From Salinispira sp. (GTDB taxonomy: Bacteria > Spirochaetota > Spirochaetia > DSM-27196 > Salinispiraceae): a stretch of 64,000 nt of DNA. Position numbers and translations under genes: made by a program. The notes under the pieces are model-generated. The model saw only the letters and a program-made list of their open reading frames with translations. It was not told where the DNA came from and did not search any database. The stretch is from the NCBI GenBank assembly GCA_965602015.1, contig OZ271918.1:512001-576000 (forward strand). Direction: 5' to 3'. Every line of letters begins with the position of its first letter. Position 1 is the first letter of the stretch. Below are positions 33,050 to 48,131 of this stretch, one piece after another.

Positions 33050-34744
33050 TTAGGTAAGAACAACAGCGGTATGGACTTTGCCGGCCCGCTCGTGGCTGGC
33101 GGTAAGCATTAGTTCAGTTCCGCTCGGTGCCTTGATGACCCATTCCACACTCGCCCTATCCGGATAAAACTGTCCCTGAAACATGGTCCAGGGAGTAACC
33201 GCAGTATGGGAATATGAGCGGCCCTCAAGCTGTTCTCCGATAACCCGTTTCTTTCCCGAAAGCAGGGCAGCGCCCTCGGGAATATCAATTTCATAACAGA
33301 CGCCCCGGACGATTTTTTTCTCAATCGCCTGTTTGGATACATATGTGGGGAGCCAGCCGTTGTTTTGCACCGACATTTTCACAAGCCAGGAATCCTGGCC
33401 CGTCTGTTCCACCTCGGTCTTGAAAATCTCCAGGCAGGGGGAAATGGCGAGATGCCATACCAGCCAATCGGTAAACGGCGCAATTTCCGCCTCGAGGTAG
33501 GCGCCGGGGGGATTTCGCCAGCAATAAAGATAGTCCCATCCGCCGAGCTCCACGCTGCCTAGATCAGGATGCTCGAAGGGGTACCAGTCGATGTATCCCT
33601 TTCCGTCGAGTTTTTCATCGCTCCATTTTATCATCTTTATATCGTCTTCAATCGGATGATTGCGGTACCAGTCTATGTAGTGTTTCGGTTCAACCCCGGC
33701 CTGACGCTGGGGACTCCAAATTTCCACCGTCCAGGAAAACAGGCCCAGGTGGGAGAACAGCCATTCATCAAAACCGCCGGTAATAACCTGCTTGGGGTGA
33801 TAGCGAAAATCATGGTACACCGAGTACACCGGATAGCCGGTTATTTCTGTCGCCTTTTCACCGATCTCCTTGTATACCCACAGATCTTCAGGAGCAAAAT
33901 CATCATCAGGGTGGGTCTCGAAGGGTCGCAGGATGACTCCGCTCCAGGTATGAAAGGCGACGCCGCCGGTAATATTCCGGTGAGCAGTGATAAAATCAAC
34001 GGCAGCCCGCACTTCAGGTTCGGATCCGGGGTAGGGACCTGCGCCGATTTGTTCACCTTCGCCTCTCCAGTTCGCCGGAAAGTTTCTGTTGAAATCCAGG
34101 CCCTGTTTTTTCTTGGCCCAGTCGATTCTGATTCCGTCGAAATCCTTTACCCGGCCCTCACGGAGTACCCGGTAATACTGACCTCCGCTTTCCGCCGGAT
34201 CTCTTCTTACCATTAGTCGGGGGTCTGCTTCCGAGGTCTTCCACTGCCCGTCGGGATCGGGAATACGCATGGAAAGAATCCGGCCGTCACCGTCAACATC
34301 CCGGGCTTCAAGCCCTTCTGTGGGATCCTCGTCAAACGGCCAGGGGCGGGTTCCCGAACGAACCTCTTCGAGCCGGTCTGAGAGAATGAGCTCAGCACCG
34401 TCGGGGTTAAGCCGGGGACAAATATAAAACGCCCGGGTGTCCAAAACGCGGGTAATTTGGGGATCCTGGCCATATCTGCGAATCAGTTTGTTAATCGCGT
34501 ATAAGCAGGCCGAAGAGGGTGCGAGCTCCGTGGCATGAATATTTCCATCCACCCACATCGCCGGCTTGTCAGCCGCTGGCCCGGTCTTGCTGTTGGTTAT
34601 TTCTACGAGCGGAATACTGCGGCCCTCATGACTTGTACCTATTGAAACCAGAGTGCACAGCTGCGGATACTCAGACTCGAACTGCTTCAGGATTCCGGTG
34701 AGATCATCATAATTGTAGTAGCGGTCAAACTGCACGTCAGCCAT
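33050..34744 (-). CDS. M14 zinc carboxypeptidase family protein
   Basis: IHATE, NPDG, DFNRNF, SEPE, FHTWSG; AGGAGG SD before ATG 34744. Confidence 0.88.
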   Translation of the reverse strand: MADVQFDRYYNYDDLTGILKQFESEYPQLCTLVSIGTSHEGRSIPLVEITNSKTGPAADKPAMWVDGNIHATELAPSSACLYAINKLIRRYGQDPQITRVLDTRAFYICPRLNPDGAELILSDRLEEVRSGTRPWPFDEDPTEGLEARDVDGDGRILSMRIPDPDGQWKTSEADPRLMVRRDPAESGGQYYRVLREGRVKDFDGIRIDWAKKKQGLDFNRNFPANWRGEGEQIGAGPYPGSEPEVRAAVDFITAHRNITGGVAFHTWSGVILRPFETHPDDDFAPEDLWVYKEIGEKATEITGYPVYSVYHDFRYHPKQVITGGFDEWLFSHLGLFSWTVEIWSPQRQAGVEPKHYIDWYRNHPIEDDIKMIKWSDEKLDGKGYIDWYPFEHPDLGSVELGGWDYLYCWRNPPGAYLEAEIAPFTDWLVWHLAISPCLEIFKTEVEQTGQDSWLVKMSVQNNGWLPTYVSKQAIEKKIVRGVCYEIDIPEGAALLSGKKRVIGEQLEGRSYSHTAVTPWTMFQGQFYPDRASVEWVIKAPSGTELMLTASHERAGKVHTAVVLT

Positions 34745-34808
34745 GGAAGCCTCCTGGTATTTGCTATGAAAGTATACCATGAGACAATCCGGCTCAGCGA
34801 AAAGATTA

Positions 34809-35266
34809 GCTTCAAGTCCAGATGCTTATCGATAAAAAAAAGCTTCCAGATCCTTATAGATCTGAAAGCTTTTTTTGATGCGGCGAACTGGACTTGCCCT
34901 CCGGTCGTCGCCATCGTGGCTCCTCCCTCCGGGCCGCCTCCGTCGCTAAATCGCCGTCCAGGCGATTTGCGCTCGCAGCGCTCGCGCCGCTCCTCCGTTT
35001 CAAGTCCAGCTATTTGGCCATAAAAAAAGCTCGTCGATCTAAAGATCAACGAGCTTTCTTTGCGGCGAACTGGACTTGGTCTACAGCCTTCGGCGTCCTG
35101 CCTCAGGCTTCCGACCCGTCTCAGCTCCTGATTTGCCATCCCGGCAATTCGCGCTCCAGGTGTTCGCGCCGGAGCTTCGCTTCAAGTCCAGATGCTTATC
35201 GATAAAAAAAAGCTTCCAGATCCTTATAGATCTGAAAGCTTTTTTTGATGCGGCGAACTGGACTTG
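34809..35266 (-). repeat. tRNA-linked tandem array: three copies of [tRNA-Leu 3' end + terminator hairpin + anti-T-arm] separated by ~100-bp structured inserts
   Basis: TGCGGCGAACTGGACTTG at 34879-34896, 35061-35078 and 35249-35266; 88-bp blocks 34809-34896 and 35179-35266 are identical. Confidence 0.9.
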
Positions 35267-35332
35267 AACCAGCACGTCCTAACGGACACTAGCCCCTCAA
35301 GCTAGCGCGTCTACCAATTCCGCCACCGCCGC
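35249..35332 (-). tRNA. tRNA-Leu(GAG)
   Basis: GCGGCGGTGGCGGAATTGGTAGACGCGCTAGCTTGAGGGGCTAG...GGTTCAAGTCCAGTTCGCCGCA; long variable arm; no CCA. Confidence 0.95.
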
Positions 35333-35383: not shown

Positions 35384-35412
35384 ATATTATCGAAGCATTG
35401 CGAACGTGTCAA
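35384..35412 (-). promoter_or_regulatory. Sigma70-type promoter of tRNA-Leu(GAG)
   Basis: TTGACA (35412-35407), 17 bp, TAATAT (35389-35384). Confidence 0.65.
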
Positions 35413-35434: not shown

Positions 35435-36109
35435 TTAGCCTTTATCTTTGGTTTTCCGCTGTGTTGACGCCAGCTCATCAATGCTGATTCCGCGGTAATC
35501 CGTAATTGTTTTGAGGCAACCTGCGGCCCTGAGCTCCGATCTGCTATGGGTGCTTTCAATACCAATAACCCGTACACCCAAGTGACGAGCCGCCTCAATT
35601 CCCGCGAAGGAATCTTCGAAAATGACCGCTTCATCGGGACGGATATCCAATAACGACAGGGTCCTGGCAAATATTTCCGGATCGGGCTTTCCTTTAGTGA
35701 TGTCCTGGCTGCCGCTGATAGCGTTAAAATAATCGCGAATTCCAAGACCGTCTAGAATAAAATCAATATTCGGTTTGTCCCCCATGGTCGCCAACGCGAT
35801 TTTGAGGCCACAGGATCGGGCTTCCGCAAGAAAGGCCGATAGTCCCCGTACTTCCTTCATCTCCGGTTTATACATCTTCCTGTAGAGCTGCTCTTTTTCC
35901 TGCCCCAAAGAAATGAGTTGTTGGCGGTCCGTGTCGATTCCGAAAAACCGGCCGATCACCTCATCAATGGTTCCCTGGATGGCGCGTTGAGCATCAGCGG
36001 CCGTCAGATGCACCCCGTGACGGCTGAGAAACTCGATCCATGAGCGCTGATGGACATGCATGTTATCAACCAATGTGCCGTCCATATCAAAAATCAAGGC
36101 GCGAATCAT
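35435..36109 (-). CDS. HAD family phosphatase (beta-PGM-like)
   Basis: FDMDGTLVD, GKPDPEIF, FEDSFAG. Confidence 0.9.
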   Translation of the reverse strand: MIRALIFDMDGTLVDNMHVHQRSWIEFLSRHGVHLTAADAQRAIQGTIDEVIGRFFGIDTDRQQLISLGQEKEQLYRKMYKPEMKEVRGLSAFLAEARSCGLKIALATMGDKPNIDFILDGLGIRDYFNAISGSQDITKGKPDPEIFARTLSLLDIRPDEAVIFEDSFAGIEAARHLGVRVIGIESTHSRSELRAAGCLKTITDYRGISIDELASTQRKTKDKG

Positions 36110-47492: not shown

Positions 47493-47565
<73 letters not shown>

Positions 47566-47636
47566 AGGATGCTTCTCTGGAGAATACAGTATACCATAAT
47601 CTCCGTACTGCCGTCAGTAATCATATAGAGAGTGGA

Positions 47637-47718
47637 TGCGAGAGGAGGGACTCGAACCCTCACACCGTAAGGCACTAGATCCTAAATCTAGCGTGTCTAC
47701 CAATTTCACCACTCTCGC
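47637..47718 (-). tRNA. tRNA-Leu(TAG)
   Basis: GCGAGAGTGGTGAAATTGGTAGACACGCTAGATTTAGGATCTAG...GGTTCGAGTCCCTCCTCTCGCA. Confidence 0.95.
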
Positions 47719-47816
47719 AGACACTGCTGGCAGATACTATATTAAATTGTTTTTTCCCGTCAAGATACTTTTGCAAGAAATCTTGGGAGATGCTCCTCAC
47801 TATTGTGTGGGGGCGA

Positions 47817-47889
47817 TGAGCCGTGAAGGGATCGAACCTTCGACCCGCAGATTAAGAGTCTGCTGCTCTACCAGCTGAGCTAACGGCCC
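47817..47889 (-). tRNA. tRNA-Lys(CTT)
   Basis: GGGCCGTTAGCTCAGCTGGTAGAGCAGCAGACTCTTAATCTGC...GGTTCGATCCCTTCACGGCTCA. Confidence 0.95.
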
Positions 47890-47932
47890 CTGTTGTTACT
47901 TGTGTACTACATGTTTTTTCCCCGAAGGGAAT

Positions 47933-48006
47933 CGCGCCCGGCAGGACTCGAACCTGCGACCCACGGATTCGAAGTCCGGCACTCTATCCAGCTGAGCTAC
48001 GGACGC
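47933..48006 (-). tRNA. tRNA-Arg(TCG)
   Basis: GCGTCCGTAGCTCAGCTGGATAGAGTGCCGGACTTCGAATCCG...GGTTCGAGTCCTGCCGGGCGCG. Confidence 0.93.
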
Positions 48007-48058
48007 GTATTACGGTCAAAGTCCGTCTACATACTAATGACGTCCCTGTTCCGCTTAG

Positions 48059-48131
48059 GGTGGATGACGGGACTTGAACCCGCAACAACCAGAACCACAA
48101 TCTGGTGCTCTACCATTGAACTACATCCACC
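48059..48131 (-). tRNA. tRNA-His(GTG)
   Basis: G(-1)GTGGATGTAGTTCAATGGTAGAGCACCAGATTGTGGTTCTGG...GGTTCAAGTCCCGTCATCCACC. Confidence 0.95.

Follow-up and report, generated by a model that had tools for sequence, protein, structure and literature searches.

The closest described systems are the tRNA-linked repeats (TLRs) of E. coli. In the available part of PMC8144298 these number 22 at ten loci, lie directly downstream of a tRNA or rRNA gene on its strand, are recognised by 18-19 bp that repeat the 3' end of that gene and have no known function, and they fall into the groups rtT/rtV, rsX, rpK, raQ/Z/V, the lys-cluster repeats and rrA/B/F (PMC8144298, citing Egan and Landy 1978 and Rudd 1999). 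Transcription and processing to discrete RNAs are given there for rrA/B/F and rtT only. A second point of comparison is the CTX phage, in which two inverted sites 90 bp apart pair within a single strand and host XerC performs one strand exchange (PMC3089051, in the part available).

The window (the whole stretch of DNA that was analysed, 64,000 nucleotides) holds an array that is a TLR by definition and layout, though not a member of Rfam RtT, and that belongs to a spirochaete-wide family of tRNA-linked units, each about 180 nt long, gene-less, tightly folded and located behind a tRNA gene. The features of the array and its flanks are as follows.

35435..36109, minus strand: HAD-like hydrolase gene, upstream flank, outside the element (flank annotation)
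35384..35412, minus strand: predicted sigma-70-like promoter of tRNA-Leu(GAG) (TTGACA, 17 nt, TAATAT; 10 of 12 consensus matches)
35249..35332, minus strand: tRNA-Leu(GAG), the intact host gene; the putative target is tRNA positions 54-73 (35268-35249)
35204..35246, minus strand: terminator-like hairpin A of unit 1 (A-tract, stem-loop, T-tract), an inverted repeat in the sequence
35181..35191, minus strand: reversed arm 1, complementary to tRNA positions 54-64
35079..35180, minus strand: core 1, 102 nt, stem P1 leading to hairpins P2 and P3, then P4 adjoining the tail copy (model R1, 118.3 bits; a training copy)
35061..35078, minus strand: tRNA tail copy 2 (positions 56-73), a CAAGTCCAGTTCGCCGCA match
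35022..35060, minus strand: terminator-like hairpin B of unit 2, an inverted repeat in the sequence
34999..35009, minus strand: reversed arm 2, a CTGGACTTGAA match
34897..34998, minus strand: core 2, 102 nt, folded as core 1, with 63% identity to it (R1, 119.1 bits; a training copy)
34879..34896, minus strand: tRNA tail copy 3 (positions 56-73), a CAAGTCCAGTTCGCCGCA match
34834..34876, minus strand: second copy of terminator-like hairpin A, identical to the unit 1 hairpin
34809..34821, minus strand: reversed arm 3 and a 2-nt stub of core 1, where the array is truncated (from the sequence)
33050..34780, minus strand: M14 zinc carboxypeptidase gene, downstream flank, outside the element (flank annotation)

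A sequence-only reading of this DNA had described the layout exactly, from the positions of the 18-mer to the arm, the terminators, the 12-nt gap and the 88-nt identity. On the minus strand the 18-mer CAAGTCCAGTTCGCCGCA lies inside tRNA-Leu(GAG) at 35249-35266 and again at 35061-35078 and 34879-34896 (offsets +188 and +370), and these are the only three copies in the 3.87-Mb source genome. The 11-nt reversed arm CTGGACTTGAA, at 35181-35191, 34999-35009 and 34811-34821 on the same strand, has five copies genome-wide on both strands, and every copy in the array is preceded by an A-tract, hairpin and T-tract and by the 12-nt gap. The minus-strand order is thus tRNA, hairpin A, gap, arm, 102 nt, tail, hairpin B, gap, arm, 102 nt, tail, hairpin A, gap, arm and stub, with units 1 and 3 identical over exactly 88 nt and the core of unit 3 reduced to 2 nt. 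What had been taken for variable inserts are 63%-identical copies of one conserved, folded 102-nt core. A five-tRNA cluster elsewhere in the window (His, Arg, Lys, Leu and Gly, 47493-48130) is without any unit.

The array is genuine, and assembly duplication is ruled out as its origin by contig depth. The 88-nt repeat piece stood at 31.4 against 17.1 for the unique 342-nt middle piece in run X1 and at 42.7 against 22.2 in run X2, a ratio of 1.8-1.9 that marks a true two-copy repeat, in a test in which no piece spanned the whole array and the four runs were one sample, possibly the source. A 183-nt joint that appeared to skip a unit was excluded, its contig having six mismatches and probably representing another core locus.

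The same layout recurs at other tRNAs, both in the source genome and in its relatives, a comparison that the sequence-only reading had proposed. A profile from 10 seed copies gave 14 strong matches in the source genome (E<1e-10), one weak match behind tRNA-Val and three weak matches that are unrelated. Covariance model R1 was built from 30 copies, alignment A1 using 30 of 35 units after two mis-bounded units and three near-duplicates were left out. It finds 15 cores in the source genome among the 150 of 1353 first-look candidates that were scored, all on the tRNA-sense strand; 12 of these lie behind nine tRNA/tmRNA genes, at 1-3 cores per gene, and the other three at fragments of tRNA-Leu(CAG) that have been displaced to the distal side of an island. 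Arrays in the congener G002 reach six. Across the phylum, R1 matches occur in 23 of the 151 genomes sampled, and a same-strand tRNA or tmRNA lies upstream in 27 of 28 fetched non-training loci, the 28th beginning its contig. A fixed-pattern search with one genome per species returned 88 stretches, and among the 80 listed 77 are titled spirochaete; the three others (L104, L114 and L144) have no model match and were taken as chance. Pooling gave 157 units. For 127 of them a host gene was called within the locus, and these genes are of 23 kinds; the other 30 mostly have a tRNA tail in a locus that is cut off or an array that is longer; the loci are kin and partly picked by fixed pattern, and such counts overstate independence.

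The comparison with the E. coli rtT repeats, made in the sequence-only reading, is correct in anatomy. The window units likewise lie downstream of a tRNA on the same strand, at 1-5 per locus and several loci per genome, with an 18-nt tail copy, and in E. coli K-12 the units at serX and proK likewise run from terminator through reversed arm to a GC-rich core. A reversed match to the tail of 7-9 out of 9 is present in 14 of 17 E. coli units, where host specificity is weak (the cognate tRNA comes first alone in 7 of 17, shares first place in 8 and is beaten in 2). Units of both groups have a short CGGCCCGNAGG-like motif near the junction. The minimal spirochaete core, that of L090, shares its GNA-capped hairpin with E. 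coli, where GNA triloops are frequent in the TLR cores (26 of 57 counted). The spirochaete cores differ in being larger and in having GNA/GNA internal loops and ASGAN tip loops, and their tail starts at C56 rather than at about A58. Homology of the cores is not significant (HMM E=0.7 for rrB; R1 E of at least 0.13 on seven E. coli loci). The Rfam comparison that the earlier reading had proposed came out negative: RF00391 (RtT) has no match in the source genome at E<=10 among the 150 of 164 candidates scored and none in the window region, where the tRNA alone matches Rfam. No mention of RtT was found in the latest version of PMC10542128.

The reversed arm tracks the host tRNA. At positions 57, 59, 63, 64 and 65 the arm is complementary to the cognate host in fractions of 0.93, 0.93, 0.82, 0.75 and 0.59 (n=124 units) and to non-cognate hosts in 0.47, 0.51, 0.28, 0.29 and 0.35, the informative positions being 57, 59 and 63-66 only since the arm's invariant positions are built into the search model. 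The suggestion that the anti-T-arm changes with its host is therefore borne out at positions 63-64, with 82% and 75% cognate against 28% and 29% non-cognate matches. Loci L083 and L096 were left out of this arm/host comparison, and two doubtful tRNA calls were left out of the genome-wide tRNA counts. Among tRNAs with the same T-loop the pair run is 10.0 for the cognate against 7.5 for others (n=99). The pairing run is also longer with the intact gene than with the unit's own tail copy (mean 8.4 against 6.6), a difference partly due to the frequent truncation of terminal tails. The junction itself is fixed: of 87 units whose tail is well kept, 71 have a tail copy that starts at C56. Identity of the copy is 17-18 of 18 in 83 of 124 family units and 18 of 18 in both window units. 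Arm and tail are paired in 100% of cells in alignment A1 and 91.9% in A2, partly by construction of the alignments. At L096, a tRNA-Thr(CGT) variant, the core is preceded by a complete reversed T-arm and followed by a complete direct one.

The reading favoured here, plausible if short of probable, is that the units are non-autonomous cassettes that fold as single-stranded DNA, are inserted at the T-loop by a trans-acting recombinase and are then shuffled between the 18-nt repeats. In its favour are the strict tRNA linkage, the junction at C56, the host-matched arm, the regular spacing of tail and arm, the covarying fold with its DNA-like mismatches and the signs of movement. Tail, terminator, reversed arm and folded core would together form one cassette, with the fold on the tRNA-sense strand. 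Insertion would fall in the T-loop between positions 55 and 56, leaving the tRNA intact and displacing the old tail downstream, and the reversed arm would be a base-pairing half-site that joins the cassette to the target T-arm, as in the folded attachment site of CTX. By elimination and analogy only, the catalyst would most likely be a tyrosine recombinase, either a tRNA-visiting island integrase or the host Xer. Duplication, deletion and mosaicism of resident units would come later, through ordinary recombination between the 18-nt repeats. Such recombination would account for the A-B-A order of the window array, for which no cassette-inserting enzyme is needed. The earlier statement that the array is not simple slippage was thus half right; it does not hold for units 1 and 3, whose 88-nt identity is most simply a recent duplication between 18-nt repeats.

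The geometry of the units also bears on an enzyme-free selfish structure, in which a folded unit on the lagging-strand template, or on the strand displaced by transcription of the tRNA gene, would align the 18-nt repeats and cause polymerase slippage, fold-back synthesis around the terminator would make the arm and template switching would move the cores from one tRNA to another. This we consider rather doubtful. It would be consistent with a terminator placed about midway in the palindrome that tail and arm form (median offset +4 nt, with 61 of 106 units no more than 4 nt away), with an arm match that decays with distance, reaching background by position 70 and extending to 22 nt in one locus, L071, with near-perfect tandem arrays such as that at Leu(TAA) (99% identity), with collapsed tail-arm palindromes at island ends and with the failure to find a helper gene. 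Slippage gives no account, however, of a phylum-wide conserved 100-nt four-helix core with fixed loops, of a junction fixed at C56 or of paralogous cores that resemble independent arrivals. The spacing from upstream tail to arm, 60-69 nt in 77 of 106 units although their terminators are unrelated, speaks for the cassette reading. Of the unit-bearing genes, 4 of 11 are co-directional with replication, compared with 21 of 34 among the remaining genes, as judged from a weak GC skew.

The core has one architecture throughout, a stem P1 branching to hairpins P2 and P3 and a hairpin P4 that adjoins the junction, and its helices covary. In an unfitted alignment 89.0% of cells were paired, with both-side changes in 26 of 36 pairs (slid controls 22-43%; 0 of 500 shuffles), and in a fitted alignment 92.9% of cells and 31 of 36 pairs (0 of 500 shuffles), figures that are inflated by kin among the sequences. 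On the tRNA-sense strand purines make up 77% of the unpaired core positions, and the internal loops are GNA/GNA and GA/GA, which indicates that this is the strand that folds; a model in which the bottom strand folds was dropped on the same grounds. When mismatches were scored with no credit for G-T, 140 cores contained 15 G-T (0.7%), 12 A-C (0.6%) and 91 G-A (4.4%) in 2082 positions, while the terminators of the same units contained 120 G-T (7.1%), 4 A-C (0.2%) and 2 G-A (0.1%) in 1687. A direct count over the tRNA stems of the source genome gave 37 G-T and 0 A-C of 528 (7% G-T). The usual wobble bias of the neighbouring RNA helices is therefore absent from the cores, and the fold is probably selected as DNA and likely acts as single-stranded DNA. 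The GNA triloop is very stable in DNA (PMC3201870, in the part available).

These counts weigh directly on the view that the units are selected small RNAs, made by terminator read-through as structured RNAs with a tRNA tail, cut by tRNA-processing nucleases and bearing GGA tips that titrate CsrA or a similar protein. The CsrA site is A(N)GGAX. The fold does lie on the transcribed-sense strand, the P3 tip loop is AGGAN in 82 of 102 distinct rows and so resembles such a site, and the source genome encodes CsrA. In E. coli, titration of CsrA by RrA/B/F is reported, and RrB is transcribed, processed and bound by CsrA and Hfq, in the available part of PMC8144298. Against this stand the G-T pairs of the cores, no commoner than A-C, unlike those of terminators and tRNAs, which argues against selection as RNA; the P4 tip, which is ACGAN in 36 rows against AGGAN in 45; and a patchy presence, in 23 of 151 genomes and differing between congeners. 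The same source, in part, gives scores below 0.01 for CsrA binding of 19 tRNA-linked E. coli TLRs, and its supplement lists an E. coli strain lacking 22 TLRs (PMC8144298). On balance a small RNA function appears unlikely as the reason for the family.

Comparison of cores and of congeners points to movement. Cores at different tRNAs of one genome have a mean identity of 0.649 (83 pairs), close to the 0.637 of cores at different tRNAs of different genomes (3312 pairs), among which some pairs reach 0.84-0.89. The nearest-neighbour core lies at another tRNA type in 59 of 89 cases against 77.5 expected by chance, which shows some fidelity to host tRNA type also. Unit number and order, which the sequence-only reading had proposed to compare between strains, do differ between congeners: G002 has five units at tRNA-Asn and five at Pro(GGG), where the source genome (G000) has none at either, and at Leu(GAG) G001 has one full and one truncated unit and G002 three units of other make-up. 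The core of the G002 Leu(GAG) locus (L040) looks mosaic by eye, its first half resembling the G000 Met core (L032) and its second half core 1 of the window. In the last unit at tRNA-Leu(GAG) of G001 (L005), an insert of about 130 nt bounded by inverted repeats lies between terminator and arm.

At tRNA-Leu(CAG) either order of units and island occurs: in G002 two units separate the tRNA from an island-type left end, and in G000 they lie beyond the island. The G000 island is a 51-kb low-GC stretch (C1:3600290-3651230; L001-L003) that encodes an integrase and contains an arm-like repeat in four copies. Two of its right-hand junctions have a 3' half of the tRNA with a hairpin added in the variable loop, a collapsed tail-arm palindrome and a core, and a third (C1:3611834) is full, undecorated and without a core. 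At tRNA-Arg(TCT) of G000 (C1:970836-970909; L031) the T-arm of the gene is unlike that of both congeners (L191 and L194) and the congener version persists in the downstream tails, so that an insertion has replaced the 3' part of the tRNA there; the replacement could be the scar of an island and not the work of an inserted core. Both congeners have island-like DNA at this tRNA, and its right end in G002 carries a core. Cores at island junctions are a possible route between genomes.

Such loci raise the question of whether the units themselves are island scars, that is, the joined left and right ends of a cargo-less integrative element with the core as part of an attachment arm. Cores at the right-hand junctions of two small elements within the 51-kb tRNA-Leu(CAG) integrase island, together with the island-like DNA at tRNA-Arg(TCT) in both congeners and the core at its G002 right end, would be in keeping with this. 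The islands observed, however, use the anticodon loop and their own arm-type repeats, the full junction at C1:3611834 has no core, no intact element with arm, cargo and core in order was observed, and a uniform unit length at 23 host types demands repeated exact cargo loss. We judge this origin improbable. The units share with tRNA-integrating islands and satellites a regenerated tRNA, a displaced 3' fragment and stacking at one site, as at tRNA-Leu(CAG), and differ in having no cargo or arm-type repeats, a constant length, a reversed arm and one core family at many tRNAs. The integrase arm-type repeats and the cargo or integrase remnants expected of island attachment scars are likewise absent, the arm-like repeat being confined to its island and found in none of the window units.

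A further hairpin module of about 45 nt, termed type B, has 12 strong matches in G000: seven behind tRNA/tmRNA genes, three in or near rRNA operon spacers and two upstream of GxxExxY genes, where it lies within hairpin DNA. Copies include C1:970718-970764, 1482804-1482850, 1616993-1617038, 2259855-2259900 and 2939600-2939913, and in the rRNA-spacer set at least one copy is nested inside another. Its insertion sites are tail copies, terminator flanks and cores. Some G000 arrays, in the C1:1352300 and C1:970100 regions, are followed by small accessory genes that by eye are toxin-antitoxin or nucleotidyltransferase-like.

Serial insertion by an enzyme acting in trans, as proposed in the sequence-only reading, would still be the best account of the units, and the searches for a helper found none. 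The recombinases of the source genome are XerC, XerD, an integron integrase and two island recombinases; a Y1 transposase and a reverse transcriptase had no match in that genome. Neither Y1 transposases (8 of 23 core-bearing genomes against 55 of 151 overall) nor the GxxExxY nuclease, PDDEXK_3 (6 of 23 against 31 of 151), follow the distribution of the cores. No integrase, transposase or reverse transcriptase was found in 76 ORF pieces from the short flanks downstream of units, and cores had no match in plasmids, phages or viral contigs. The integron integrase (C1:1742714-1743973; L099) matches TIGR02249 at 379.5 bits, and a crude scan of 16 kb around it gave no attC-like site; a link to the integron was set aside on this result and on a junction that does not fit.

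Integron attC sites have RYYYAAC/GTTRRRY boxes and a crossover at G|TT, and their bottom strand folds. With CTX attP(+) and attC the units have in common two inverted target-like sites that are separated by about 100 nt and able to pair within a single strand, the lack of a recombinase of their own, purine-rich unpaired parts and tandem arrays; they differ in a target that is apparently the tRNA T-loop rather than dif or attI, in having no attC R-box and in being gene-less units of 180 nt. They were rejected as attC cassettes, given the junction at 55/56, the TT that precedes the tail copy in 1 of 87 and is absent from the other 86, and the fold on the tRNA-sense strand. REP/REPIN sequences and IS200/IS605 ends are small hairpin elements of single-stranded DNA moved in trans by HUH Y1 transposases, with a guide next to the hairpin base that is complementary to the site of cleavage. 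The putative guide here differs in being 9-16 nt long and in changing with the host tRNA, and the tRNA linkage is strict. The lack of a Y1 transposase in the source genome and of any co-occurrence led to rejection of the units as non-autonomous members of that class.

Several points count against the reading as T-loop cassettes. A tRNA integrase is expected to cut at the edge of the 7-nt T-loop, with which the 55/56 junction does not coincide. The helper searches were empty, and plasmids, phages and viral contigs hold no core. Movement would involve circles, and a circle from one tRNA carries the wrong acceptor strand to another, so that retargeting needs an extra, unexplained step; near-identical cores at Ser(TGA) and Ser(GCT) of G068 each end in the tail of their own host. 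In the available part of a study of the E. coli K-12 mobilome, RNA-gene regions had no discordant reads and their raised coverage was read as RNA/DNA hybrids; tyrT/rttR is one such region and to that extent counts against cassettes (10.1101/2024.07.17.603846).

In the literature searched, no description of spirochaete TLRs, of a host-matched reversed arm or of a DNA fold was found, though the original TLR papers (Rudd 1999) may describe the arm; nor is the unit motif described in the available parts of PMC8632094 and PMC11109978, supplements apart. The E. coli TLRs have been known since 1978 without known function or origin (PMC8144298, in part). In a second, phylum-wide family of about 150 diverse copies the fold covaries, its mismatches resemble those of DNA, the junction is fixed and the arm matches the host tRNA. 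E. coli by itself could not reveal these features, and the family makes the origin of TLRs testable. For annotation, the units mimic island attachment sites, and model R1 can flag them. It is a speculative and somewhat unlikely possibility that TLRs form a cross-phylum class of tiny base-pair-guided mobile DNAs, in which a conserved single-stranded scaffold would recruit an enzyme and the T-loop would be picked by an arm of 9-16 nt, copied from the host tRNA and open to rewriting. An arm that serves as a guide would make retargeting of the system feasible, and should the reading as base-pair-guided mobile DNA be true, the family would represent a new programmable insertion system and would account for the repeats of E. 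coli.
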